A stretch of 64,000 bases of DNA, taken from positions 17,033-81,032 of IMG/VR virus record IMGVR_UViG_3300009506_000013; one strand, written 5' to 3'. Under the pieces are notes generated by a model. The model did not search any database, was not told the origin of the DNA, and saw nothing but the letters and a program-made list of their open reading frames with translations. Numbering within the stretch: position 1 is the first letter of the stretch; every line of letters starts with the position of its first letter. Position numbers and translations under genes: made by a program. Origin of the DNA: a virus. Positions 2,460 through 17,072 of this stretch are shown in pieces.

Positions 2460-2942
2460 TCAAAATTTTGACAGCTGTACTAGCGCCACCCGAAAATCCC
2501 GGTCACTCATTCCAGATAGCCTCTTCAATTCTGCTATAGAACACAGCTTCATCCGGCTACTGTGTTCCGTAAATGCGTTGAGCAGTCTCTTCGCATTCAG
2601 GTTGCCCCGGCTCGTAAACACATCCCTGATCCGGACGGGAAACAAATCAGGAGGTGGCTGGTTGGGGACTGAAGGAGTCTCATTGGCTTGACGCAGTTGG
2701 GCCCTCCTCCTTTCCCGGCTCCAGATCTTGGCAAAAGTCTTTTTCACCGCCTCGATGGCATAGGTGCTTTGTTTTGCGCTTCCGGTTGTGTTATACTTCC
2801 CTGCCGCCTTCACCAAAGTCAAACGAGCCTCTTGTAAATAATCCTCGAAATCCCGGCTACAGTCACGGTTCTGCTGGAAAGCCTTCCATGCCAGGCTTTC
2901 TATGTATCTTTCGAGCACGAACTGGGAACTTGGTTTTTTCAT
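2460..2942 (-). CDS. Sigma-70 region-2-like transcription factor
   Basis: FEDYLQEARLTLVKAAGKYN...STYA resembles sigma region 2; SD GGAGG before ATG 2942. Confidence 0.6.
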   Translation of the reverse strand: MKKPSSQFVLERYIESLAWKAFQQNRDCSRDFEDYLQEARLTLVKAAGKYNTTGSAKQSTYAIEAVKKTFAKIWSRERRRAQLRQANETPSVPNQPPPDLFPVRIRDVFTSRGNLNAKRLLNAFTEHSSRMKLCSIAELKRLSGMSDRDFRVALVQLSKF

Positions 2943-3207
2943 AATCCTCCTCCGATACCATAACATCTGTTCCTGAACATATATTAAGATCCTCTACAAC
3001 TTCCTTCTCTGTAAGTGGCTTCTCTACTCTGGCCCTGATATACGTAGAACCACAGCCTTGGTAGATGACCACTCCCGAAAGCATTTGCATATTGGGCGGA
3101 AACCAAAAATTGGTATTCGCCGGTAGTGTACCCACCTTAACATAATAAAGGCCATGGTACAAGCTCACTGGTGGATTCTTTACTGGGTAACCTTCTTTCT
3201 CCTTCAT
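2863..3207 (-). CDS. hypothetical protein
   Basis: ORF with SD GGAGGAG before ATG 3207; overlaps the sigma-like gene start. Confidence 0.45.
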   Translation of the reverse strand: MKEKEGYPVKNPPVSLYHGLYYVKVGTLPANTNFWFPPNMQMLSGVVIYQGCGSTYIRARVEKPLTEKEVVEDLNICSGTDVMVSEEDYEKTKFPVRARKIHRKPGMEGFPAEP

Positions 3208-3218
3208 GGACTCCTCCA

Positions 3219-4952
3219 TTAGAACGGGCAAGCATCATCACTCACTGCCTTATCCGCATCGACATAATCTCTTCCCCAATCGCTCTGGTCGATGGGTCCG
3301 CTGTTCGCTCCTTTCCCCAATATAACATCGATGATACTACTTTTCCCGGCCGCAATTTGGGCCAAGACAACGTCCATACTATTTTGTAACACGAGATGCG
3401 TCACGAGCACCTTATGAGTTTGGCCGATCCGGTGGGAGCGGTCTGCCGCTTGGTTCATCCGCTCTGGCACGACATCCTCTTCCACAAACAGCACATGCCA
3501 TGCGGACGTAAGGTTCAGCCCTACACCCGCCGCCTGTATACTCCCGAAGAAAGGAAGCATTGAAGGATCGCCGTTGTATTGGTCGATGATCGGTTGCCGC
3601 TTCTTTGCTGGTGTCGGCCCGTATACGAGCGCAGATGGCTGGAACTCCCGGTGTAGCCTCTCCAAGACATGGTGGTGGTGCGCGAATACTAACATCTTAT
3701 GTGGATCGTCGGTGAGTGTCTCTTTAAGATATTGGATGGCGTATGGGATCTTGAGGTCAGCCAGCTCCCGCCTCTGCCGGCTATACTCTTCAAAAGAGAT
3801 GGTAACCTGAGAGTCTAGCTCCCCCACGAGCTTGCGGAACTCCGCCGCATTTCCGGCCTCTCTAGCTGTTTTTAAGGCCTTCCTGATAGAATCTGTTGCC
3901 TTCCGGAAATGATCCACCTCTCTGGCCAGCTCGCGGGCCAATTTTGGGCTTTCTACAGGCACTTCAAGGATCTGATACCGCTTATCGGGCAGGTCCAGGT
4001 CCACCTCATCCTTTGTCCTTCGGATCATCACCGACTTCCGGAGCAATTCCTGAAACTGCTCTTCGTTGGATGACCCGCTAAAATCCCAGCCATATCCGTT
4101 GTGTGTCGCTCCGCAAAACGTCTGCGCAAACCACCAAAAGCTTGGCCAGGACTTCGGATCCAGCCAATGGAGCACCCCGAACATCTCCACCGGACGGTTC
4201 TCAATCGGCGAACCACTCAGCGCCGATTTATACCGCGCCTTCAAAGGGGCAAAGGCCTCTTCATTTTTCGGGTTGTCCTTCTTTGGCTCATATCCTAGCA
4301 CCATCTTGGTCCGCATGGCTTTAGGGTTTTTGATAAATTGAGCCTCATCAGACACAATAAGATCCCACGAGACAGAGTCCAGCCGAAACTTATGCCTGTC
4401 GAGGATATCATAATTGATGATAATGATTTGAGCTGCTGGCCAATCGCTCCCCCAACAGATCCCGACACTCAAAGGCCGGACAAGCCAAGTCTTCAGCTCA
4501 TTCTCCCAGTTGACCTTGAGACTGGACTTAGTTATGATCAGAACTCTCTCAATAGTAGGATCGGCGTTGATAAGACCGATAGCCTGGATGGTCTTCCCCA
4601 AGCCCATGTCATCGGCGATGTAGCTATTCTTATGTTCTAGCTGCCACTGGATGCCGGCCTTCTGGTATCCGAAATACTCTTCACCCTCTGGAGCTGGTAA
4701 AGCCCAGTTGGAATCTGTAGCGGATGATTTGGCCAGGTTGGCCTCTCTCTTCTTAATAACATTCGCCAGCATCTCCCGGCACCGTGGCGTGGCGTATTGG
4801 GCTAGTATTGCGGCGTGTTCCGGATTGGTAGTTGCCCAATGGTTGGGCACTATCCGCTTCCAGACAAACTGAGCGCCCTTAGGCACTAGGCGCTCAGCAT
4901 ACGCACAATAACAGACAAACGCCTGGTATCGGTCTGAATAATCTAATTTCAT
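3219..4952 (-). CDS. SNF2-family (SMARCAL1/HARP-like) helicase
   Basis: Motifs ADDMGLGKT, DEAQ, SGSP, GVGLNLT and QAADRSHRIGQ. Confidence 0.9.
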   Translation of the reverse strand: MKLDYSDRYQAFVCYCAYAERLVPKGAQFVWKRIVPNHWATTNPEHAAILAQYATPRCREMLANVIKKREANLAKSSATDSNWALPAPEGEEYFGYQKAGIQWQLEHKNSYIADDMGLGKTIQAIGLINADPTIERVLIITKSSLKVNWENELKTWLVRPLSVGICWGSDWPAAQIIIINYDILDRHKFRLDSVSWDLIVSDEAQFIKNPKAMRTKMVLGYEPKKDNPKNEEAFAPLKARYKSALSGSPIENRPVEMFGVLHWLDPKSWPSFWWFAQTFCGATHNGYGWDFSGSSNEEQFQELLRKSVMIRRTKDEVDLDLPDKRYQILEVPVESPKLARELAREVDHFRKATDSIRKALKTAREAGNAAEFRKLVGELDSQVTISFEEYSRQRRELADLKIPYAIQYLKETLTDDPHKMLVFAHHHHVLERLHREFQPSALVYGPTPAKKRQPIIDQYNGDPSMLPFFGSIQAAGVGLNLTSAWHVLFVEEDVVPERMNQAADRSHRIGQTHKVLVTHLVLQNSMDVVLAQIAAGKSSIIDVILGKGANSGPIDQSDWGRDYVDADKAVSDDACPF

Positions 4953-5482
4953 ATGGACATTCTCCTTATTAGATTATCCATTCGGCGTAGAACTTCTGTT
5001 TGCAGTTTTGGCGGAATGAAATGCTTCTTTACTTCTTGGAACATCTGGCTGCTAAGCCACACACCCTTCGAGTCCTTTTCCTTCAACAACTGATACTCTT
5101 GGAACTCTGCGGCGGTGATGGTTATGCTGTTTGCTACGCGGGCACCCTTCGGTGTTGCCGCCTTCTCCGCATCATCCTTATTAAAACGGATCGCCGGAGG
5201 TGGCTGAACCTCTTCCTTATCAGTCTTCAGGTTCTTAATAAGGAAGTCCACAATACCTTTGACGGATGGATTGGTGTACTTGTGCCGTTGAAGCCGGCAA
5301 GTCCAGGTTACCACCATATCATCCCTGTCGAAAGTAAAGTTCATGTTAATTTGGAGCGGCTCCATTTTCGCACTCCAGATCCGGTCCCAGTACTGGCCGA
5401 CAAAATAACCCCGCCGCCCCAGCTCCTTGCGGATCTCTTTTTGCAACCTTGCCTTCTTTTCCCCTTGCGACATAGGTCCCAT
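4949..5482 (-). CDS. hypothetical protein
   Basis: 177-aa ORF with SD AAAGGAG; ATGA overlap with the helicase gene. Confidence 0.65.
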   Translation of the reverse strand: MGPMSQGEKKARLQKEIRKELGRRGYFVGQYWDRIWSAKMEPLQINMNFTFDRDDMVVTWTCRLQRHKYTNPSVKGIVDFLIKNLKTDKEEVQPPPAIRFNKDDAEKAATPKGARVANSITITAAEFQEYQLLKEKDSKGVWLSSQMFQEVKKHFIPPKLQTEVLRRMDNLIRRMSI

Positions 5483-5671: not shown

Positions 5672-5746
5672 TCTGGACTTGCGACCAGTAGCCCAATCCT
5701 CTGGGCTAGCGCATTAAGGCCGGATCGCTCCGGCCCCGCTCTGCTA
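5672..5746 (-). ncRNA. twister ribozyme copy 1 (permuted, open at P5)
   Basis: GCAGAGCGG-P1(GCGA loop)-UAAUGCGC-P3-CUGGUCGCAAGUCCAG; T1 variant UCGC/GCGG. Confidence 0.85.
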
Positions 5747-6058
5747 TGCTACATCCTCTTCCCACTCCTCTTCCTCTTCCTTACTGGGGTTGATCCCGGC
5801 ATTACAGCTCCGGCACAACAGCTCCAGCTCCCCGTTCTCATAGTCCCTCTCATAGCGGACCATCCGTGACCACCGGGACAAATCCCGGCAGGACCAATCC
5901 CGCCCGTTGGGGTGGTGAAATTCTAACTTCCTTTTTTTACCACACTCTTCACAGCACCCGCCCATCTTTATGATTAAGGCTTTCCGCCTCAGTTTGTAGG
6001 CTTTGACGTGATTCAGAGTTTTTCTTCGGCTCCTTTTCTTCCGGACTTCCTCTGTCAT
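5744..6058 (-). CDS. HNH-type zinc-binding endonuclease-like protein
   Basis: CEECG...LEFHH...LLCRSCN pattern. Confidence 0.65.
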   Translation of the reverse strand: MTEEVRKKRSRRKTLNHVKAYKLRRKALIIKMGGCCEECGKKRKLEFHHPNGRDWSCRDLSRWSRMVRYERDYENGELELLCRSCNAGINPSKEEEEEWEEDVA

Positions 6059-6114
6059 CTCGTTTCTCCCTTCCAGTATTTTACCCCAGTTTTTAACTGG
6101 ATCATAGCTAAAAA

Positions 6115-6190
6115 TCTGGACTTGTGACCAGTGGCCGGGACAACCCCAGCCAGCGCATTAAGGCCGGATCGCTCCGGCCCCACTCTGCTA
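6115..6190 (-). ncRNA. twister ribozyme copy 2
   Basis: Full consensus; core identical to copies 12 and 15. Confidence 0.85.
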
Positions 6191-6247
6191 ATTTTCTATG
6201 CCCATAACCTTTTCAATCTGACTCCCCGCTTTCCCCTATCAAACCTC

Positions 6248-6679
6248 CTATCCATATATCCGGTCAGCCAAGCACTCCCTCCACAACATTTCTGGGATGT
6301 CTTCCTTCCGGAAGTATGCTTTGACCCTTGGATCAGTTAATAACAACCCTTCCGCCACATCTGGACAAGCATCCTGTAATCGGGAATCATCATACCCGTC
6401 TGCCTTAAGATCCGCCCGGCACTGGCTACAGATCTTATTCAGCTGGCGCTCTGTATATGGCTTTACCTTTGGGGCTGAGGTATTCACCTTGAACGGCCTT
6501 TCCTTCTCCTTTATCCGGATGTAGTCTGGATATAGGATACCGGCATCGCTTTGTATCCTTATTTTATAGGCCACAAAACCACCCCGCCTTCCAAGCTCAA
6601 CCTTCTCCACTACGGTCCCGATTATACAGGTGTTCTTATCTATTCTGAACCGGTCCCTCTTTCCTATCTTTGCTACCAT
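6248..6679 (-). CDS. hypothetical early protein
   Basis: ATG preceded by SD AAAGGAG directly after ribozyme copy 3. Confidence 0.7.
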   Translation of the reverse strand: MVAKIGKRDRFRIDKNTCIIGTVVEKVELGRRGGFVAYKIRIQSDAGILYPDYIRIKEKERPFKVNTSAPKVKPYTERQLNKICSQCRADLKADGYDDSRLQDACPDVAEGLLLTDPRVKAYFRKEDIPEMLWRECLADRIYG

Positions 6680-6692
6680 TTTGTTTCTCCTT

Positions 6693-6766
6693 TCTGGACT
6701 TGCGACCAGTAGCCCAACCGTTGGGCTAGCGCATTAAGGCCAGGTTGCCCTGGCCCCGCTCTGCTA
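6693..6766 (-). ncRNA. twister ribozyme copy 3
   Basis: P1 variant GGCCAGG-GCAA-CCUGGCC (compensatory changes, still a GNRA loop); T1 UCGC/GCGG. Confidence 0.85.
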
Positions 6767-6958
6767 TAAGAGTTTTGATAAAGGTGAACGCCGAACACGG
6801 ACCGCACGAGCGCGGTGTATGAACTGACTACCTTCATACTTCACAATCACCCGTCCGCATCGCCCACAATTCGCTACACGAGAGGCAGGCATACTACCAA
6901 CATCCACCCGGTTTTTCTGCCCACAGTAGGGGCACTGCCGGATCTTAATACATTCCAT
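6764..6958 (-). CDS. small zinc-ribbon protein
   Basis: CPYCGQKNRV...ANCGRC; SD GGAGG before ATG 6958. Confidence 0.6.
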   Translation of the reverse strand: MECIKIRQCPYCGQKNRVDVGSMPASRVANCGRCGRVIVKYEGSQFIHRARAVRVRRSPLSKLL

Positions 6959-6959
6959 G

Positions 6960-7400
6960 TTAGTATCCTCCACCAGAAGCACATTTTGGACCAATCCCGG
7001 CCTTTACAGACTCCGGAGTTGTTAACAACCTACCACATACGCAGCACCGCCCGCAGTGATAGAAGTTGATCTTGGTTGGTATAGAACCTTTAATCAAGTG
7101 ACCGTACCACCACCGGAAGGCAACAGCCGCTTTCGAGTCTTCGCTCATCTTCTTTTTAGAGTGGCGATATTCGCCGCCCTTAATAAGACCCATGAATGAA
7201 TAATCGGAAGTGTTGTCCGGACCTCGAAGCAAGCTGACCCAAAACAGATCCTCTTCCTCAGTCTTTATTGCCTTTGATATCCGATAGGTGAAACGATTCC
7301 CGGTGTCAGGATTCTCAATGGTAAAATAAGCATTCCCGCCAAAGATGAATTTTTTCTGCTCCTCTATTTCGAAGAGCTGGGCAATCGGTAGAGGCTCCAC
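6960..7400 (-). CDS. DUF6011-like protein
   Basis: C-terminal CGRCCVCGRLLTTPESVKAGIGPKC motif; GTG start with SD GGAGG. Confidence 0.7.
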   Translation of the reverse strand: MEPLPIAQLFEIEEQKKFIFGGNAYFTIENPDTGNRFTYRISKAIKTEEEDLFWVSLLRGPDNTSDYSFMGLIKGGEYRHSKKKMSEDSKAAVAFRWWYGHLIKGSIPTKINFYHCGRCCVCGRLLTTPESVKAGIGPKCASGGGY

Positions 7401-7615
7401 TAGTCACCTCCCAGTTCATCATCTGCGAACAGACCATCATCTGCGAACAGACCATCATCATCGTCATGGTCTTCAACATCGCCCACGCCAAACTGATCGC
7501 GAATTGCATCCTGTAACGGGTTTTTACAGCGCCCGCAAATAGCAGTCTGAACCTTCGCCTCATCCACTCTATTCTTCACCTGACACGCATCGCACTTAAC
7601 AGTCATATTATCCAT
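7400..7615 (-). CDS. small zinc-ribbon protein with acidic tail
   Basis: CDACQVKNRV...AICGRCK; 18-bp tandem duplication encoding GLFADD x2; SD AAAGGAG. Confidence 0.6.
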   Translation of the reverse strand: MDNMTVKCDACQVKNRVDEAKVQTAICGRCKNPLQDAIRDQFGVGDVEDHDDDDGLFADDGLFADDELGGD

Positions 7616-7630
7616 TTTTATCTCCTTTAT

Positions 7631-7704
7631 ACCAGACTTGTGACTGGTCTTGGGACAATCCCAAGGCGCATTAAGGCCGGATCGCTCCGGCCCCACTCTG
7701 CTTA
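7631..7704 (-). ncRNA. twister ribozyme copy 4
   Basis: P4 arms swapped relative to the consensus (CCAG-UCACAAGU-CUGG vs CUGG-UCACAAGU-CCAG), a double compensatory change. Confidence 0.85.
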
Positions 7705-8040
7705 TAGGTTGTTTAGTTCTGCTTCGGTAGCGGTGATGGCTTCCCGGTCAGGATTATCAGCCATCAACTGCCTTTCGAGCTTGGCCTTAAGGTTCTTCAG
7801 ATCCGTGGAATAACCACCCGCCTGTAACGAACTCATGAACAGCCGGACATTGGACAGAAAGAACTCACCCGTGCGGCCCCGGTCATCGACTGCCTGAACC
7901 TTTACCACTCCCTCTTCAATCCAAGCCGCCACGATCCTTGCGGGCCACGCTACCTTGTAGTCATTAAAAGCATGTTCGATCCGCCACGCCGGACAGATGA
8001 ACTGTTCTAAAAGGTTGTTTGATAATGATCCTCGTGCCAT
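7702..8040 (-). CDS. hypothetical early protein
   Basis: SD AAGGAG; stop codon abuts ribozyme copy 4. Confidence 0.7.
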   Translation of the reverse strand: MARGSLSNNLLEQFICPAWRIEHAFNDYKVAWPARIVAAWIEEGVVKVQAVDDRGRTGEFFLSNVRLFMSSLQAGGYSTDLKNLKAKLERQLMADNPDREAITATEAELNNL

Positions 8041-8058
8041 TTTGTTTCTCCTTATTAG

Positions 8059-8111
8059 TCTGAACTTGTGACCAACGAATGGGGCCAGGGAAGCCTGACC
8101 CCGCTCTGCTA
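8059..8111 (-). ncRNA. degenerate twister ribozyme copy 5 (probably inactive)
   Basis: Keeps GCAGAGCGG, a P1 hairpin and GGUCACAAGU, but lacks UAAUGCGC and P3; T1 is mismatched. Confidence 0.65.
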
Positions 8112-8318
8112 GCTGTCTTCCCTGCGTTCTGCTTCCCGCAGGTCATCGGCCATATTAACAATGTTCTCGCACAGTTCAATCAGCTTATCCCGATATTCCT
8201 TTTCAGACTTACTGATATCATGATCCGGCCCCTCTTCAATAGCTTCTTCAATAGCCGATTCACAATCAAGTAAATCACGATAGGTGTTCTCAAATCGACA
8301 ATAGCTCATATTGCTCAT
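8109..8318 (-). CDS. hypothetical early protein (MSNMSYCRFENT...)
   Basis: True start is ATG 8318 with SD AGGAG; the track start at 8402 lies inside the ribozyme. Confidence 0.7.
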   Translation of the reverse strand: MSNMSYCRFENTYRDLLDCESAIEEAIEEGPDHDISKSEKEYRDKLIELCENIVNMADDLREAERREDS

Positions 8319-8333
8319 TTTCTTATCTCCTAT

Positions 8334-8409
8334 TCTGGACTTGTGACCAGTAGCCTCCACCATAGAGGCTAGCGCATTAAGGCCGGATCGCTCCGGCCCC
8401 ACTCTGCTA
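8334..8409 (-). ncRNA. twister ribozyme copy 6
   Basis: Full consensus; identical to copy 13. Confidence 0.85.
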
Positions 8410-8931
8410 GATGATAGGCTTCACTCTATTCGCCCACACCGTGATAAGATCCTTGGGTGCACGGCCAGTGATACGGGCCAGATGACCACCAAAGGCCAGG
8501 TCCAACATTTTCTTCGGGTTGAGTACAGTTACCTTCCCGGTGGTCTTATTAATCCGAACCACCTGGGACTTTGACCACATCCCATTACTCAGGACTTCAA
8601 CCATCTGCCCAACCCGCAACCTCTCTATATAGCCAAAGTTTTTAAGGTATTCAGCAGCCTTCTCTTTGTGCTCTTCGCGGTGAGCTTGGCGCTCCTCCTT
8701 GAATTCATTTCCTGCCGCATACAGCACTTTTCTCTGCTTCGGCGTCAACTTCGCGGGTTTCAACATATGCTCTGGAACAGTGTACATTCCTTCCTCTTCC
8801 GATTTTACTTCAAAACGATAGACAACAGGCTGATATCGCTTACTGACTTTCCGCATCCCCATAACTACTCCAACAACCGTCTTGTGTTTGCGGGAAGATG
8901 TAAACTGAACTGCGTCACCGATATTAAACAT
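8407..8931 (-). CDS. hypothetical early protein (SH3/KOW-like beta domains)
   Basis: FNIGDAVQF and LRVGQMVEV motifs; SD AAAGGAG. Confidence 0.65.
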   Translation of the reverse strand: MFNIGDAVQFTSSRKHKTVVGVVMGMRKVSKRYQPVVYRFEVKSEEEGMYTVPEHMLKPAKLTPKQRKVLYAAGNEFKEERQAHREEHKEKAAEYLKNFGYIERLRVGQMVEVLSNGMWSKSQVVRINKTTGKVTVLNPKKMLDLAFGGHLARITGRAPKDLITVWANRVKPII

Positions 8932-8944
8932 GGTATTTCTCCTT

Positions 8945-9020
8945 TCTGGACTTGCGACCAGTAGACTCCACCATGGAGTCTAGCGCATTAAGGCCGGATC
9001 GCTCCGGCCCCGCTCTGCTA
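8945..9020 (-). ncRNA. twister ribozyme copy 7
   Basis: Full consensus; T1 variant UCGC/GCGG. Confidence 0.85.
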
Positions 9021-9302
9021 GTCTTCTTTACACTCAGGATAATCAACCGCTTTAAATACAGGGAACGTCCGCTGAGTCACGGCATTCTGGACTTCCTTTA
9101 AAACACTAAACAGAGCCTCAAGCTCTTGCTCCTGTTCCTTACCACGAACACGGATTTCACAGTTAAAACAAGCCTCACCGTTGCTTCCTGATACTTGAAG
9201 CTCCCCGCGATAGCCATACACCAGACTTAACAGGCCCTTCACATGTTCCACAATTTGGGCATCTGTCGCTTCTGTTACCGTCTCAACCGAATAGTCTTTC
9301 AT
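9018..9302 (-). CDS. hypothetical early protein
   Basis: SD AAAGGAG; bounded by ribozymes. Confidence 0.7.
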   Translation of the reverse strand: MKDYSVETVTEATDAQIVEHVKGLLSLVYGYRGELQVSGSNGEACFNCEIRVRGKEQEQELEALFSVLKEVQNAVTQRTFPVFKAVDYPECKED

Positions 9303-9319
9303 TTCTTATCTCCTTTTAT

Positions 9320-9393
9320 TCTGGACTTGTGACCAGTGGCTCCCCCATGGAGCCAGCGCATTAAGGCCGGATCGCTCCGGCCCCACTCTGCTA
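9320..9393 (-). ncRNA. twister ribozyme copy 8
   Basis: Full consensus; identical to copy 14. Confidence 0.85.
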
Positions 9394-9600
9394 AGATGCC
9401 CGCTGAAGGATTATCTCTCTTGCCTCTATAGCGCGGACATTGGTTATCTCGTTTTGTAGCTCTAAAAGATACGTTTGCTCAACTCCTGAAGCCTCCGCAT
9501 AGTTCATCAGGCCTTGGATATAGGCTTCGTAAACACGGACCATCCGTTTCAGAGTCTTCTCTTCCTCTACCACTATTCTCTTCACGTTGTTATTAGCCAT
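9391..9600 (-). CDS. hypothetical early protein
   Basis: SD AGGAG; bounded by ribozymes. Confidence 0.7.
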   Translation of the reverse strand: MANNNVKRIVVEEEKTLKRMVRVYEAYIQGLMNYAEASGVEQTYLLELQNEITNVRAIEAREIILQRAS

Positions 9601-9611
9601 TTCTTTTCTCC

Positions 9612-9690
9612 TCTGGACTTGTGACCAGTACCAGGGACAATCCCCGGTAGCGCATTAAGCTGGAGTCTTAAGACTCCAGCCCACTCTGCT
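9612..9690 (-). ncRNA. twister ribozyme copy 9 (P1 replaced; overlaps the end of the SprT gene)
   Basis: P1 = GCUGGAGUCUUAAGACUCCAGC, a different sequence with perfect pairing; core intact. Confidence 0.85.
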
Positions 9691-10117
9691 GTAGCGTCCA
9701 GATAGCAACTAAATCAGCCATCCGGCTTGACTCTTCCATAGTCAACAGCCCATCCGCAAACATCCTTTCCCATTTGCGAAACGCAGGGCCGTGACCCTCG
9801 TCAGCGCCATCCTTATACTTGCCCAGCCGAACGGGTTGGGCACTGTTGCAAATAAACCCGTGGACCAGCTCGTGCCACAGGATGCTTCGGACCTCTTTCA
9901 AATACCGCCCATATTTGAGCGGCTTTTCAAAGAACTTATTCAGGGCGATTGTCCGGGCCGCAACGTCATACTGACCGAAGACCACGCCCGGCAACCCGGC
10001 CTGATTAACTGTTATTGGGAACTGCTGGAAGGATACTTTCACCACACAGCCGGAGCCATTCAAGTATCCTTCATCCATCTCCTTCACCAACTGGAAAAGC
10101 AAAGATTCTATTTGCAT
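9668..10117 (-). CDS. SprT-like zinc metalloprotease
   Basis: ILWHELVH (HExxH) and GHGPAFR motifs. Confidence 0.75.
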   Translation of the reverse strand: MQIESLLFQLVKEMDEGYLNGSGCVVKVSFQQFPITVNQAGLPGVVFGQYDVAARTIALNKFFEKPLKYGRYLKEVRSILWHELVHGFICNSAQPVRLGKYKDGADEGHGPAFRKWERMFADGLLTMEESSRMADLVAIWTLQQSGLES

Positions 10118-10770
10118 CGCGCATACCCTGCCTTCCCGCCGATTTTAACCTTGCGGATAATTCCAAGTCTCACAAGGTGCCCAGCGACCATCTTCAAACG
10201 GCCAGCTGGATTCGAGCTTTTAATGTTGGGAATGAGTTCAGCAATAGCGTCATCCAGTGTAATAGAAGGATATTTGACCAGTAATTCCGCGCAAAACCTT
10301 ATAGAGGTATTTGGCAACCAGGCCGGAAGACCATCCGGACCAATCGGAGGTATTGCGGAAGTCCCACCACCCGTCTTGGCCTTCTTTGCTTTCGCCGTTG
10401 ACGTTGTAGTAGTCTGTTTGTTTTCGAGCTTATCAATATAAGATTGGATCTGCGGCGGATTCAGCGCCACCGCAAACCGTTCCATATACTTCAAAGCCAT
10501 CCGCAAACTTGTTTCCTTCTCTTCCGGAAACTGTGTGCCCAAGGCGCGGGCACGGCATTTACCTGCGATGTTCCAGATTTTAACAGCATCATCGGGCAGG
10601 TACTTCACACCGGGATTCTGTCGCTGTAATCTCTGAAGACTCCCACAAATCGGGTCCATCACGGATATCGCCTGGATTAATAGGCTTGTCCGAAGACTTA
10701 AGTCATCGTGGGCACGGGAAAATGCCGCGTAAATCTTTTCAATCATTTTCCTTGGATTTGCTTTCGCCAT
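10108..10770 (-). CDS. hypothetical early protein (possible C-terminal winged helix)
   Basis: 220-aa ORF with SD AGGAG after ribozyme copy 10. Confidence 0.65.
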   Translation of the reverse strand: MAKANPRKMIEKIYAAFSRAHDDLSLRTSLLIQAISVMDPICGSLQRLQRQNPGVKYLPDDAVKIWNIAGKCRARALGTQFPEEKETSLRMALKYMERFAVALNPPQIQSYIDKLENKQTTTTSTAKAKKAKTGGGTSAIPPIGPDGLPAWLPNTSIRFCAELLVKYPSITLDDAIAELIPNIKSSNPAGRLKMVAGHLVRLGIIRKVKIGGKAGYARCK

Positions 10771-10781
10771 TTCTTTTCTCC

Positions 10782-10858
10782 TCTGGACTTGTGACCAGTG
10801 GCCGGGACAACCCCGACCAGCGCATTAAGGCCGGATCGCTCCGGCCCCACTCTGCTTA
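10782..10858 (-). ncRNA. twister ribozyme copy 10
   Basis: Full consensus. Confidence 0.85.
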
Positions 10859-11575
10859 TTCGCTCCCCGTCCCCAACAGCGGACGGTTCGCAACCGCAAG
10901 AAATTTCGCCTCAAACTCAGCCTCACTCGTGATCTCCTCATGAACTCCCCCGGTGATTGCGCTCAGGGTTTTGAGGTTATCACTACCATTTCGGCCATAC
11001 CAGCTGTCTTCGCGGCCAATAAAAATGGTGTCAATAATAACGCCAGCCGTTTTGGCTTGTTCGGCGGCATCGAGGGCAACATCATAGTCATGCATATCGC
11101 CATCCGATGTAAGGATAATTCTGGGCGTATAATCTTTGTTCTTCTTCAGAAGAGTCAACGCCGCACGGATACCCTTTCCAGCATAAGTCCCGTTTCCATT
11201 CGCATACAGCGCACGAACAGCATCCTTGATCTCATCCAGGTTCGATGAGCCTCTCAGAGGTATTCGAGTGTTTTTCCCGAACTCAACAACGCCAATCTTC
11301 ATGGACAGGGCCTTTTCGCCAATCCGTTCATTCGCATACTTCTCAACAACCTTCTTTTGAAGGTCAACCTTCCGTGAACCGCTGTAGCGGTCTTCGCCCA
11401 TCCCATCATTCATCGAATAGGAAGCATCCAACACGAAACAGAGATATTGGAAATTATCAAAGAAGTCATTCAGATCCATACTACCAGCACTCAGGATCAA
11501 ATCCTCTTCTTTTTTCGTCATGGAAGTTGCGGTTGTTACGATAGAAGTGTTTTTGGAAGTTTTGTTATCAGACAT
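10856..11575 (-). CDS. von Willebrand factor A (vWA) domain protein
   Basis: MIDAS motif VLDASYSM plus GT and LTSDG; true start is ATG 11575 with SD AAGGAG. Confidence 0.85.
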   Translation of the reverse strand: MSDNKTSKNTSIVTTATSMTKKEEDLILSAGSMDLNDFFDNFQYLCFVLDASYSMNDGMGEDRYSGSRKVDLQKKVVEKYANERIGEKALSMKIGVVEFGKNTRIPLRGSSNLDEIKDAVRALYANGNGTYAGKGIRAALTLLKKNKDYTPRIILTSDGDMHDYDVALDAAEQAKTAGVIIDTIFIGREDSWYGRNGSDNLKTLSAITGGVHEEITSEAEFEAKFLAVANRPLLGTGSE

Positions 11576-11594
11576 GGTATTTCTCCTTTTTAAA

Positions 11595-11672
11595 AACTGG
11601 ACTTGTGACCAGTTAGATTCCACCATGGAATCTAGCGCATTAAGGCCGGATCGCTCCGGCCCCACTCTGCTA
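11595..11672 (-). ncRNA. twister ribozyme copy 11
   Basis: Full consensus; P4 extended to AACUGG/CCAGUU. Confidence 0.85.
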
Positions 11673-11861
11673 ATTTTCTATCCAAGCAACGCTTTTCGCA
11701 TTCAATAGTTCCAGTCTCACCTCTTCCAGCATTTGGATATCGGCCTCGTGTTTCCTCTTGCTTCGAGCTGAGAAAGAAAGTTTGTCAATCCGGTCTTGGA
11801 TAGCGTCAACCACCGCCAACTGCTGGCGGATACTCAGAAAGTGTACCATTAAGTCTTTCAT
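11670..11861 (-). CDS. hypothetical early protein
   Basis: SD AGGAG; bounded by ribozymes. Confidence 0.65.
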   Translation of the reverse strand: MKDLMVHFLSIRQQLAVVDAIQDRIDKLSFSARSKRKHEADIQMLEEVRLELLNAKSVAWIEN

Positions 11862-11872
11862 TTTTTATCTCC

Positions 11873-11949
11873 TCTGGACTTGTGACCAGTGGCCGGGACA
11901 ACCCCAGCCAGCGCATTAAGGCCGGATCGCTCCGGCCCCACTCTGCTTA
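11873..11949 (-). ncRNA. twister ribozyme copy 12
   Basis: Full consensus. Confidence 0.85.
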
Positions 11950-12246
11950 AGGCTCATAAAATCTAACATCGAAATCATTACAAGCCCTCATGAAATCCAG
12001 TATCGTCATCGTGTCAGATAACCGGCGCAGGAAGGCATAACCGTTCATTCCTTCCACCGTAGAATACTGGTCAAGATCATTCTCGTAGATATGGACGCCA
12101 TTGGCGTCAACCACGATCCCATAAGCCTTCTCAACATCTTGCGAGATTAGAACCAACCCGACCAACGGATCAGAACCATCACCAAAACTCTCAGCACTCG
12201 AAAAGGCATCCCAATCTTGCTTATCAAACTTTCTAAGATTAATCAT
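11947..12246 (-). CDS. hypothetical early protein
   Basis: SD AGGAG; bounded by ribozymes. Confidence 0.7.
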   Translation of the reverse strand: MINLRKFDKQDWDAFSSAESFGDGSDPLVGLVLISQDVEKAYGIVVDANGVHIYENDLDQYSTVEGMNGYAFLRRLSDTMTILDFMRACNDFDVRFYEP

Positions 12247-12257
12247 TTTGTTTCTCC

Positions 12258-12333
12258 TCTGGACTTGTGACCAGTAGCCTCCACCATAGAGGCTAGCGCA
12301 TTAAGGCCGGATCGCTCCGGCCCCACTCTGCTA
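12258..12333 (-). ncRNA. twister ribozyme copy 13
   Basis: Full consensus. Confidence 0.85.
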
Positions 12334-12582
12334 GTCTTCCAACTCATCCAACCCATCGAGGCAAGCCTCAACTTCATACAACCGCTGAGCCTCTTTCGCG
12401 GATATCTTCACGGAGGAAACAACCAGCCAGTTGTTATCGTCCAAGACATCCCCAACCTGTGTAACCACGGGGCAATTCTTTCCATCGAACACTTTCTTCA
12501 TGGCGGCATTTAACTCATCCACCGGAATTTGATCTGCCCAATCCCAAAATATTAACTCAGTCTTTACTGTGTTCTTTTTCAT
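12331..12582 (-). CDS. hypothetical early protein
   Basis: True start is ATG 12582 (MKKNTVK) with SD AGGAG. Confidence 0.7.
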   Translation of the reverse strand: MKKNTVKTELIFWDWADQIPVDELNAAMKKVFDGKNCPVVTQVGDVLDDNNWLVVSSVKISAKEAQRLYEVEACLDGLDELED

Positions 12583-12594
12583 TTTCTTTTCTCC

Positions 12595-12668
12595 TCTGGA
12601 CTTGTGACCAGTGGCTCCCCCATGGAGCCAGCGCATTAAGGCCGGATCGCTCCGGCCCCACTCTGCTA
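12595..12668 (-). ncRNA. twister ribozyme copy 14
   Basis: Full consensus. Confidence 0.85.
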
Positions 12669-12899
12669 ACCGTTCCAAACCTCAACGCCAGTAACCGTCA
12701 CTTTCATATTAATTCCGGCATCGGCCACGAACTTTTTGACCAGTTCCTTCGCAACATCCTTGTTTCGAGCCTCCACAAGGATCTCATCCAGCGTATCCAC
12801 GCAACCGCCAAGAATATAGGTACAACGGTATTTTTTCGGCGTGACCTTATGGTGTGGTTGCCGACGCATCGAAGTCCCCCATCCATTGTTTCTTCCCAT
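12666..12899 (-). CDS. hypothetical early protein
   Basis: True start is ATG 12899 (MGRNNGW) with SD AGGAG. Confidence 0.65.
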   Translation of the reverse strand: MGRNNGWGTSMRRQPHHKVTPKKYRCTYILGGCVDTLDEILVEARNKDVAKELVKKFVADAGINMKVTVTGVEVWNG

Positions 12900-12914
12900 T
12901 TTCTTATCTCCTAT

Positions 12915-12990
12915 TCTGGACTTGTGACCAGTGGCCGGGACAACCCCAGCCAGCGCATTAAGGCCGGATCGCTCCGGCCCCACTCTGCTA
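12915..12990 (-). ncRNA. twister ribozyme copy 15
   Basis: Full consensus; predicted U^A cleavage between 12960 and 12959. Confidence 0.85.
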
Positions 12991-13191
12991 GTAACAATCT
13001 ATTCCTTTCACCACGCATCCGGTGTTCAGGCCCTTTACCTCTTCAACCAGCGCCTCCCAGTACTTTCTAGCTGGCGCCTCTCTTTTATATTTACGGTTCC
13101 AACTCTCAAACGCGGGCCTGCGATTAAGAGTACAAAAAATCTCAAAGCCATCTTTGGTTTCGAAAAACGAAATTCTAATTGTATCGCTCAT
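12988..13191 (-). CDS. hypothetical early protein (first gene of the operon)
   Basis: True start is ATG 13191 (MSDTIRI) with SD AGGAG. Confidence 0.65.
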   Translation of the reverse strand: MSDTIRISFFETKDGFEIFCTLNRRPAFESWNRKYKREAPARKYWEALVEEVKGLNTGCVVKGIDCY

Positions 13192-13202
13192 GGTGTTTCT
13201 CC

Positions 13203-13282
13203 TCTGGACTTGTGACCAGTAGCCCAACCGCTGGGCTAGCGCATTAAACGGATGGCAATGCACTTACCATCCGCCACTCTGC
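13203..13282 (-). ncRNA. twister ribozyme copy 16 (5'-most)
   Basis: P1 = GCGGAUGGUAA-GUGCA-UUGCCAUCCGU, a third unrelated P1 sequence; core intact. Confidence 0.85.
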
Positions 13283-13815
13283 AAATTTTGGAGAATTTTC
13301 CGATCTCTTTTAGCAAAATACCGTATCGGTCACCCGCGACAATCGAATCACACTCGATTACTGAGCCACCCCGCTCAATTGGGACTTGCGATATTTCACC
13401 GTCTGTTTCACCGGGTGTCTTATCCACCCTGCCCACAACCTACTTTGTTCAGCTCTGGGTCCGCCTCACCTCCTCCGGATTTTAGCGGTAGCACCTTGGG
13501 CTCCCCGTTTTTCGGATCTTTGCCATCAGGTCTGGCCTTTTGTTTTTTCTCCGGTGGCCTTCGATTTTCATCAACCGGATTTTCCGCTGGCTCCTTCGGT
13601 TCCGCCTTCGGTCGGCTTCTTTAATTCCGCTCCCCCTGACCTTGGGCTTTCCCTTCCGCCTTTCTTTTTCGCCCTTCCGGTTTCCCCCAGTCATGCCGAT
13701 GTCGGCCTCAGTTGGGTTCCACGTTTATAGGGTGTACCGCTTTTCGCTTCCCCGCCCCCCCTTTCTTCTTTCTACTCTATTTAACTTTATCATCTTACCT
13801 TATCCTTTCTTACTG
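13283..13815 (-). ncRNA. putative long non-coding leader RNA
   Basis: ~530 nt between the promoter and the first ribozyme with no convincing ORF/SD; purine-rich, with many short GC hairpins and GGA motifs. Confidence 0.4.
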
Positions 13816-13821
13816 TACTTA

Positions 13822-13882
13822 AATATAATGGAAAATGAAGGGATAGTCTACATTTTTTTTAACTTTTTTTGATTTTTTTTTT
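13822..13882 (-). promoter_or_regulatory. sigma70-type early promoter with A-tract UP element
   Basis: -35 TAGACT (13850-13845), 17-bp spacer, -10 TATATT (13827-13822), three A-tracts upstream (13853-13882). Confidence 0.7.
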
Positions 13883-13941
13883 AAGTGGAGGAAAATCAAT
13901 CATTTATGAGGACGATTTTTTTGTTTTTTCCGGCATTTAGG

Positions 13942-14196
13942 CTATTTTTTACCCCCATCAACTGCTAATTTCCTATGCTTTTTTGATGGTCTTCCCCGGT
14001 GTAAATTCCGGGCTTTTAGGGCCAGCACCTGCCGCATATCGTACAGCCGAATATGGCCATCATCGAACACAGGCACCAAATACCCCTTTAAAACATGGCT
14101 ATCGATGGCGCTTGCTGAACAGCCGTATATCTCTGCCGCAGTCTTCCGGCTCACCAGCCGATTAATATCAAACATCCTTCTCTTGAATCTCCTCAC
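13942..14196 (-). CDS. small helix-turn-helix DNA-binding protein (MerR/Xis-like)
   Basis: SRKTAAEIYGCSASAIDSHVLKG...RLYD pattern. Confidence 0.6.
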   Translation of the reverse strand: MRRFKRRMFDINRLVSRKTAAEIYGCSASAIDSHVLKGYLVPVFDDGHIRLYDMRQVLALKARNLHRGRPSKKHRKLAVDGGKK

Positions 14197-16423: not shown

Positions 16424-17072
16424 TCCTTCTCCTCAAGAATTTGCTCTTCTCTTCATAGAATATACGCTCACGGATGAGCTTCTCTCTCTCGTGCTTTGGC
16501 ATGCTATCGAATACAAACTTTGGCATTCCGGCTACCGGCTTATTTGCATCCACCACTGCCATGCTGGCCTTCCGCTGGGCGTATTGGCGGGCTTGCTCTT
16601 CTAATTGTATTGGGAGTCTATGTTGGCGGGCAAGTTCTTGGATGCGGCGGGCGGATGCTTCCTGATTGGCTAGCTCTTGCTTTCTCTTTTCGGCATCCCC
16701 GTTGTATAGCTCTTGGCTGAGAAATTCCGTATACCGCATTTCAGCCTTCGCTCCGCATAGATGATGGGGGAGCGGGCGATGCCGGCTATATTGAACGAAC
16801 CATAGAAAGTTGTGCTCAACAAAATCCGTCAAACTCCAGCTCCGCATCCTACACAAAGCAATTATCCTCTTCATAGAGGTAAGCTCAGCCTTGGTTGTTC
16901 CTATGCGGATATATGTGGTATGGTAGTGCTTCTTATAAAGGTCAAACAATATCTCTTTAAGGTTTTGAACCTCGAACTCCATGACCCTCTTTTCGATTAT
17001 CTTTAAAAGCTCTTCTGGCTCTGGTGGTACGGGCGGTGTGCGGTTCGGTATCCAGTTCCATAACATAGGCAT
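16392..17072 (-). CDS. hypothetical replication-module protein
   Basis: 226-aa ORF with SD AAGGAG, overlapping the helicase start. Confidence 0.6.
   Translation of the reverse strand: MPMLWNWIPNRTPPVPPEPEELLKIIEKRVMEFEVQNLKEILFDLYKKHYHTTYIRIGTTKAELTSMKRIIALCRMRSWSLTDFVEHNFLWFVQYSRHRPLPHHLCGAKAEMRYTEFLSQELYNGDAEKRKQELANQEASARRIQELARQHRLPIQLEEQARQYAQRKASMAVVDANKPVAGMPKFVFDSMPKHEREKLIRERIFYEEKSKFLRRRNGHTVHTRHV

Follow-up and report, generated by a model that had tools for sequence, protein, structure and literature searches.

Clusters of hammerhead ribozymes in phage genomes are among the closest described counterparts of the locus examined here, a minus-strand array of predicted type-P5 twister ribozymes in IMG/VR virus record IMGVR_UViG_3300009506_000013, an 81,032-bp record (CheckV completeness 100%) from an uncultivated marine-sediment phage. 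The stretch analysed, positions 17,033 to 81,032 of that record (64,000 nucleotides, nt), is called the window, and coordinates are window positions unless another record is named. In the hammerhead clusters, which occur in prophages, according to Perreault et al. 2011 (PMC3088659), several ribozymes on one strand, about three copies, bracket small phage genes of varying identity, singly or in short blocks, and cut polycistronic phage RNAs of about 2 kb into the expected pieces, with cleavage demonstrated in vitro and in Escherichia coli. Those authors proposed that long phage transcripts are processed in this way to operon-length or single-gene-length mRNAs, and considered circles too. The same processing proposal is made for twisters in a 2019 review (PMC6765202), which calls for more work. 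The present array shares with these clusters the bracketing of small genes and the proposed cutting into gene-length messages, and differs from them in its ribozyme class (twister instead of hammerhead), its copy number of 15 and its very regular junction of stop codon, ribozyme and Shine-Dalgarno (SD) sequence.

Two further systems resemble the array in the architecture of the cleaved pieces. In the engineered Tornado system, as presented in PMC12118343 and PMC11263348, cleavage by two flanking twisters yields 5'-OH and 2',3'-cyclic phosphate ends; the ribozymes cleave near the termini and are discarded, which avoids re-cutting, and engineered stems hold the ends together (PMC12118343). In viroid-like RNAs and retrozymes (PMC6765202; see also PMC4918200 and PMC7229834), tandem ribozymes release monomers with one ribozyme half at either end, and circularisation makes the ribozyme whole again; these are hammerhead units circularised by a host tRNA ligase, they belong to non-coding or replicating eukaryotic elements, and their circles are documented. 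The predicted units of the present array also carry both halves. Unlike Tornado RNAs, they would retain these halves, their ends would be bridged by helix P2 and pseudoknot T1 only, and ligation would rebuild an active ribozyme; unlike the viroid-like RNAs and retrozymes, they would be SD-led bacterial mRNAs with stop codons.

In RiboJ-type synthetic insulators, self-cleavage gives a gene a standard 5' end that is independent of the upstream sequence. These insulators are engineered single elements, whereas the present array is natural, has 15 copies and would also set 3' ends. Our literature search, outside of which lay supplementary gene-context tables, returned no description of a phage operon with a many-copy twister array, or of natural circular mRNAs derived from such arrays.

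A regular array of type-P5 twisters

Searching the window with cmscan against RF02684 (Rfam Twister-P5, gathering score 37.6 bits) returned 15 matches between 5673 and 13283, all on the minus strand. Fourteen of them score above the gathering threshold (44.6-51.4 bits), and the remaining one, copy 1, reaches 37.4 bits, 0.2 under it. The whole 81-kb genome contains the same 15 matches and none further, and none of 14 control genomes is matched by the model. Each copy reads, in order, stop codon, GCAGAG-N-GG, P1 hairpin, UU^AAUGCGC, P3 hairpin, P4 (CUGGUC-N-CAAGUCCAG), Shine-Dalgarno sequence and ATG, where the caret marks the cleavage site; the core strings GCAGAG-N-G, U^AAUGCGC and GUC-N-CAAG are present in 15/15 copies. 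The permutation is thus P2'-T1'-P1 hairpin-cut-P2-T2-P3 hairpin-P4, with the open ends at P5 and loops capping P1 and P3. A review of the class (PMC5408937) defines type P5 and places the U-A cleavage site next to P1; it describes T1, between loop L4 and internal loop L1, as consisting of three Watson-Crick pairs and one A-A pair, and T2 as a pairing of L2 with L4. The U/A cut next to P1 here agrees with the site given there, and T2 can be recognised as GC (in L2) with GU (in the P4 loop).

Variation among the copies respects the fold. P1 occurs in four sequence versions and P3 in 11, all of which fold as perfect or near-perfect hairpins of 7-12 bp; one P1 is common to 12 of the 15 copies and several copies share a P3. 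P2 and P4 are nearly invariant and hence uninformative for compensatory change. A GTCCCAAG string inside P3 of copy 12 is not its P4 loop. T1 is fully Watson-Crick in 15/15 copies here, its middle pair being U-A in 12 and C-G in three, and in 42/43 copies over six arrays. Among 54 distinct copies outside the window, the middle pair is U-A in 29, G-C in 20, C-G in three and A-U in two, and is unpaired in none. Judged by their full-length covariance matches, conserved L1/L4 nucleotides, U-A site, helices P1 to P4, T1 and T2, the elements of the array are genuine type-P5 twister ribozymes. They differ from the class as described in having no P5 helix (the flanks hold a stop codon and a ribosome-binding site instead) and in the presence of 15 copies in one operon.

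Predicted processing of an operon transcript

These functional-looking twisters probably cut one long minus-strand operon transcript into linear mRNAs that end in hairpins and for the most part carry a single gene. The anatomy on which this proposal rests is observed directly. Each copy occupies a junction at which one open reading frame (ORF) ends and the SD sequence of its successor follows. The ribozymes delimit 14 units, which together contain 18 SD-led ORFs in minus-strand orientation, with 11 units carrying one ORF, two carrying two and one carrying three. Of the 14 copies preceded by an ORF, 12 have its stop codon overlapping GCAGAG or directly adjoining it, and the SD sequence and ATG come after P4. 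We infer cleavage, and with it effects on stability and translation, from this arrangement. A cut at U^AAUGCGC would leave the upstream message with a flush 3' P1 hairpin bearing a 2',3'-cyclic phosphate, and would leave the downstream message with a 5'-OH and, ahead of its own ribosome-binding site, the P3/P4 fold. All genes would in this manner receive the same leader and structured, exonuclease-unfriendly ends, independent of their neighbours. The predicted 3' tails form hairpins of 8-12 bp (-16.0 to -17.7 kcal/mol) that leave a single 3' nucleotide unpaired; the predicted 5' leaders have P3 and P4 folded (-14.2 to -19.4 kcal/mol). Promoter-like sites number 11 (10.1 +/- 3.1 in shuffled sequences) and terminator-like sites 10 (9.9 +/- 3.4); these shuffle-level counts, together with genes on one strand, are compatible with a single transcript and are no proof of it.

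The same junction recurs in other viruses. A core-pattern scan of IMG/VR gave 33 loci on 30 contigs, for which whole records or fetched loci were scanned with Rfam. Arrays of 11 copies (record G001), six (G002 and L010), four (L018) and three (G004, G005 and L007+L028) were found, G003 has two copies above the cut-off, L025 has two on opposite strands, and the 21 remaining contigs have one copy each in the part fetched. Of 40 distinct viral copies with enough flank, 24 have an abutting or overlapping stop codon, 32 have an SD-like sequence and start codon no more than 55 nt past P4, and both features are present in 22, where base frequencies predict by chance about one abutting stop in nine. 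A scan of contigs of prokaryote metagenome-assembled genomes (MAGs) yielded 22 single matches from many phyla; for 20 such copies the counts are lower than the viral ones (stop 5, SD and start 7, both 2). The phage of this study (G000 in comparisons with other records) is related to G001 and G002 through eight shared array genes at 29-62% identity. At the junction between the gene for a VWA protein and a 220-amino-acid (aa) gene, all three carry a twister, even as the proteins are 36-53% identical and the P1 and P3 sequences are unrelated; retention of a twister at this junction despite unrelated P1 and P3 is characteristic of an RNA that is conserved and functional.

Several points weigh against this proposal. 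The stabilising effect of a 5'-OH and of hairpin ends is drawn from general knowledge of bacterial RNases. With the stop codon on P2, a terminating ribosome must unfold the ribozyme, and cleavage competes with translation; a stop codon touching P2 could equally well reflect a regulatory role. The near-identity of the copies, 12 of 15 sharing one P1, could in part result from recent spread or gene conversion and not from selection on each copy.

Possible roles in cassette exchange and regulation

It is conceivable, if unlikely, that the 70-80-nt repeats serve mainly as homologous joints at the DNA level, through which cassettes are swapped, gained or lost, with ribozyme activity secondary or merely tolerated. 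The sharing of one P1, and among several copies of a P3, would suit such joints, the intervening genes being unrelated. Between G000, G001 and G002 the eight common array genes stand in different order, the three ORFs at 12331-13191 are without counterpart in G001 or G002, and two genes that overlap in G000 are separated by a twister in G001. For plain recombination joints, however, a conserved catalytic core, compensatory P1 and P3 changes and a covarying T1 would all be needless, and single twisters occupy the same position between stop codon and SD sequence in many unrelated contigs. Cassette shuffling among the related phages is real, and is more plausibly a by-product of the repeats than their purpose. 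The G001 twister between the two genes mentioned lies at 3714-3788 of locus L034 (L034 being G001, and L035 being G002). Copies 14 and 6 have the same AAAUUAG stop context upstream, despite the fact that the ORF before copy 14 ends at 6248, and the interval 6188-6248 upstream of copy 14 may be the remnant of a lost cassette. A search for sequencing runs containing the stretch gave three DNA runs, two from marine sediment (one study) and one from soil with a small share, and no RNA run. Contigs derived from the reads break at the ribozyme repeats and reveal no joints, other letters or insertions and deletions; they are silent on RNA and on cassette variants.

A regulatory role, in which ribosome traffic on the upstream gene decides whether a copy folds and cuts and so sets the dose or timing of its neighbour, appears decidedly unlikely. 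The contact between stop codon and GCAGAG, in 12/14 copies here and 24/40 in other viral loci, speaks for it, as does the one ORF whose end (9668) falls inside a P1 loop. Against it, tight spacing of stop codon and ribozyme may be mere genome compaction, and no ligand-binding or alternative-fold element is evident.

Unit ends and the question of circular mRNAs

A sequence-only reading of this DNA had drawn attention to the pieces between successive cuts, and its description of them proves exact. AATGCGC starts at 13245, 12959, 12637 and 12302 on the minus strand, from which the first three predicted units span 13245-12960 (286 nt), 12959-12638 (322 nt) and 12637-12303 (335 nt), each beginning AAUGCGC-P3-P4 and ending GCAGAGUGG-P1-U; written out, the first is AAUGCGC-P3-P4-SD-ORF-TAG-GCAGAGUGG-P1-UU. 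That reading further held that the two ends of a unit can re-form P2 and the pseudoknots, with the SD sequence and ORF looped out at P5. The two ends do bear strands complementary for P2 and T1, and the ORF does take the position of P5; T2, however, lies wholly within the 5' leader, and the flanks form no P5 helix. The bridge between unit ends therefore consists of P2 (GCA with UGC, 3 bp) and T1 (G-N-G with C-N'-C, 3 bp) only.

It was suggested on these grounds that the units close on themselves, either through P2 and T1 or by covalent joining (a host RtcB-type ligase, or the reverse reaction), and so become exonuclease-resistant circular or pseudo-circular mRNAs, a reading that we regard as very unlikely. 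The topology fits, since both ribozyme halves are present on each unit, and the end chemistry is suited to RtcB: that 5'-OH and 2',3'-cyclic phosphate ends are joinable by RtcB, and are so used in engineering, is borne out by PMC8782182, PMC12118343 and PMC11263348. RtcB is also common in cells, with matches in 10/14 control genomes, and viroid-like RNAs and retrozymes illustrate that circles with a rebuilt hammerhead can persist (PMC6765202). Closure energetics were computed for 14 units with a nearest-neighbour model without pseudoknots. In this model, folds with an enforced end-to-end P2 lie 0-2.8 kcal/mol above the minimum free energy; this P2 already belongs to the minimum-energy fold of 4/14 units, and its middle pair has a probability between 0.015 and 0.57. 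Naked unit RNA could, by this calculation, close transiently, in line with the premise of the sequence-only reading. When the T1 of a unit's own ends is assembled from the L4 strand of the upstream copy and the L1 strand of the downstream copy, it is without mismatch in 11/14 units (nine Watson-Crick, two with a G.U wobble), and the three example units given above are T1-compatible end to end.

Comparison of the copies points the other way. Over six arrays, T1 is fully Watson-Crick in 29/37 pairs of unit ends (five mismatched, three wobble) vs 42/43 within copies. In this phage an A.C mismatch falls in the middle of T1 in 3/14 units (9362-8990, 7672-6736 and 6159-5716), and an A.G mismatch occurs in the first unit of both G004 and G005. 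When the copy order was randomised, three mismatched units were obtained in 48% of 100000 shuffles, the commonest outcome, and one or none in 8%; the actual order matches the shuffles and so gives no sign of selection for end-to-end compatibility. Selection has evidently acted on the contiguous ribozyme that cleavage would need and not on the unit ends. The bridge, moreover, is merely 3 + 3 bp, with the stop codon touching P2 in 12/14 copies. Going by typical ribosome footprints, a terminating ribosome would cover P2', T1' and the first half of P1, and would consequently open an end-to-end closure.

Covalent circles meet the difficulty that ligation restores the precursor sequence at the junction, and here the caveat of the sequence-only reading, that a ligated circle would rebuild the active site, was right. 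T1 would be restored with full pairing in nine of 14 units and with a wobble in two, and since the ribozyme is not discarded, nor seen in an inactive form among the minimum-energy folds computed, a circle would be expected to re-open. Twister cleavage rates of 1-10 per min are given in the review PMC5408937, and in cyPhyRNA-seq, according to PMC8782182, RNA adapters joined by RtcB were re-cut by ribozymes that retained an active structure. In the rest of the genome, where the sequence-only reading had proposed to look for rtcB, no RtcB match was found, with 10/14 controls positive; PF09414 and PF13563 likewise gave no match in the phage. PF09511 (T4 Rnl1-type ligase) has no phage match, which is uninformative because the controls also lack one, and RtcB was not found in five other array-bearing records that are 40-84% complete. 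Among the other viral contigs, 21/30 have a single copy in the part fetched. The idea of circular products is itself not new, having been raised for the hammerhead clusters in 2011 and tested with a negative result: Perreault et al. sought circular or spliced products and detected none (PMC3088659).

The inference of closed or circular mRNAs is therefore disfavoured as a selected function: T1 is kept within copies and not across unit ends, stop codons sit on P2, and RtcB, PF09414 and PF13563 have no match in the phage. Possible by topology, it is unsupported by the tests and disfavoured by the comparison, and we judge it highly improbable. That some fraction of units exist as covalent, SD-initiated circular mRNAs, in an RtcB-active host or through the reverse reaction, is more improbable still; the likeliest candidates would be 9362-8990, 7672-6736 and 6159-5716, because a mismatched T1 should make the rebuilt ribozyme re-cleave poorly.

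Copies, genes and flanks of the array

The preferred reading, processing into linear messages, applies to an array that extends from 5673 to 13283 on the minus strand and comprises 15 intact type-P5 twisters and one degenerate copy between 18 SD-led ORFs. Copy 1 (13204-13283, 37.4 bits, predicted cut 13246/13245) has a long, 12-bp P1 and follows a leader devoid of ORFs: between the gene ending at 13942 and copy 1, no SD-led ORF of at least 35 aa is found on the minus strand at 13283-13940, so copy 1 would remove a leader of several hundred nt. It is followed by copy 2 (12916-12989, 48.3 bits, cut 12960/12959), copy 3 (12596-12667, 49.4 bits, cut 12638/12637), copy 4 (12259-12332, 48.8 bits, cut 12303/12302), copy 5 (11874-11947, 48.3 bits), copy 6 (11597-11671, 48.6 bits) and copy 7 (10783-10856, 48.3 bits), the last at the VWA/220-aa gene junction. 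Copy 8 (9613-9690, 44.6 bits) has its own 10-bp P1. Copy 9 (9321-9392, 49.4 bits), copy 10 (8946-9019, 46.8 bits) and copy 11 (8335-8408, 48.8 bits) come next, copy 10 having the C-G variant of T1 (GAGCG with GUCGCAAG). Beyond the degenerate copy lie copy 12 (7632-7702, 51.4 bits), copy 13 (6694-6765, 47.5 bits), which has the C-G variant of T1 and a P1 of its own, copy 14 (6116-6189, 48.3 bits), for which the upstream ORF ends 60 nt earlier, and copy 15 (5673-5745, 47.2 bits), again with the C-G variant.

The degenerate copy (8060-8109, minus strand, without an Rfam match) is located between a 69-aa and a 112-aa ORF. It has kept GCAGAGCGG, a hairpin and a P4-like GGUCACAAGUUC loop and has lost UAAUGCGC, the cleavage site, P2 and P3; it is presumably inactive, and for want of these elements unit 8378-7673 holds two genes. 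Downstream of copy 15 a 177-aa gene and then a helicase gene follow without a further ribozyme. A hammerhead-looking CUGACGAG...CGAA string just past copy 15 was rejected, as it gave no hammerhead match at E-values up to 1.

Minus-strand orientation is shared by nearly all ORFs of the window. The three ORFs of the first units, of 67 aa (12988-13191), 77 aa (12666-12899) and 83 aa (12331-12582), all on that strand, have no Pfam or PHROG match, and the TAG stop codon of the first shares its G with GCAGAG. Elsewhere in the array, a VWA protein and a DUF6011 protein are matched above Pfam cut-offs, and weak SprT-like, HNH and zinc-ribbon matches occur among other ORFs. The array looks like an accessory or early operon. 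The helicase is at most 37% identical to its best cultured-phage match. The SprT-like ORF (9668-10117, minus strand) overlaps copy 8, reading through P2', T1' and the P1 5' arm and terminating in the P1 loop, so that its translation and the folding of copy 8 must compete.

Unusual arrangements in other records

The viral contig of locus L025 contains two type-P5 twisters with a short P1, separated by 2 kb and encoded on opposite strands, at 2935-2984 (minus) and 4954-5005 (plus). In locus L023, on another viral contig, a type II hammerhead (46.9 bits, 1677-1743) is followed 1.3 kb downstream, on the same strand, by a match to the twister pattern (3068-3124), which is not among the gathering-level Rfam matches; genes between them would be flanked by two ribozyme classes, and their ends could then not rebuild one ribozyme.

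A search of GenBank phages with a 75-nt ribozyme query gave only matches of 18-20 nt, to the P1 hairpin. The best match, Erythrobacter phage vB_EliS-L02, was considered as a cultured carrier and set aside, having no RF02684 match in its whole record. Its locus (L061, OL955261.1 136351-142370) has regularly occurring gaps of about 145 nt between small hypothetical genes, with a GC-rich hairpin of which 20 nt are identical to the P1 of the present phage. No Rfam match at E-values up to 0.1 is found in this 6-kb locus, and the gaps may be another kind of intergenic punctuation.

Conclusions

Were circular mRNAs to be formed from these units, they would be a novelty for bacteria, as naturally occurring RNA circles that can be translated; they would matter far more than linear processing, and would constitute a natural bacterial counterpart of the engineered Tornado system. 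If, as we consider probable, the array instead processes its transcript into linear mRNAs, it would provide a good system in which to examine what twisters do in bacteria and phages, a role still unproven, and a natural template for gene insulation in synthetic operons, and it would represent a clean and unusually large case of natural ribozyme 'punctuation', in which a single phage operon is divided by 15 cuts.

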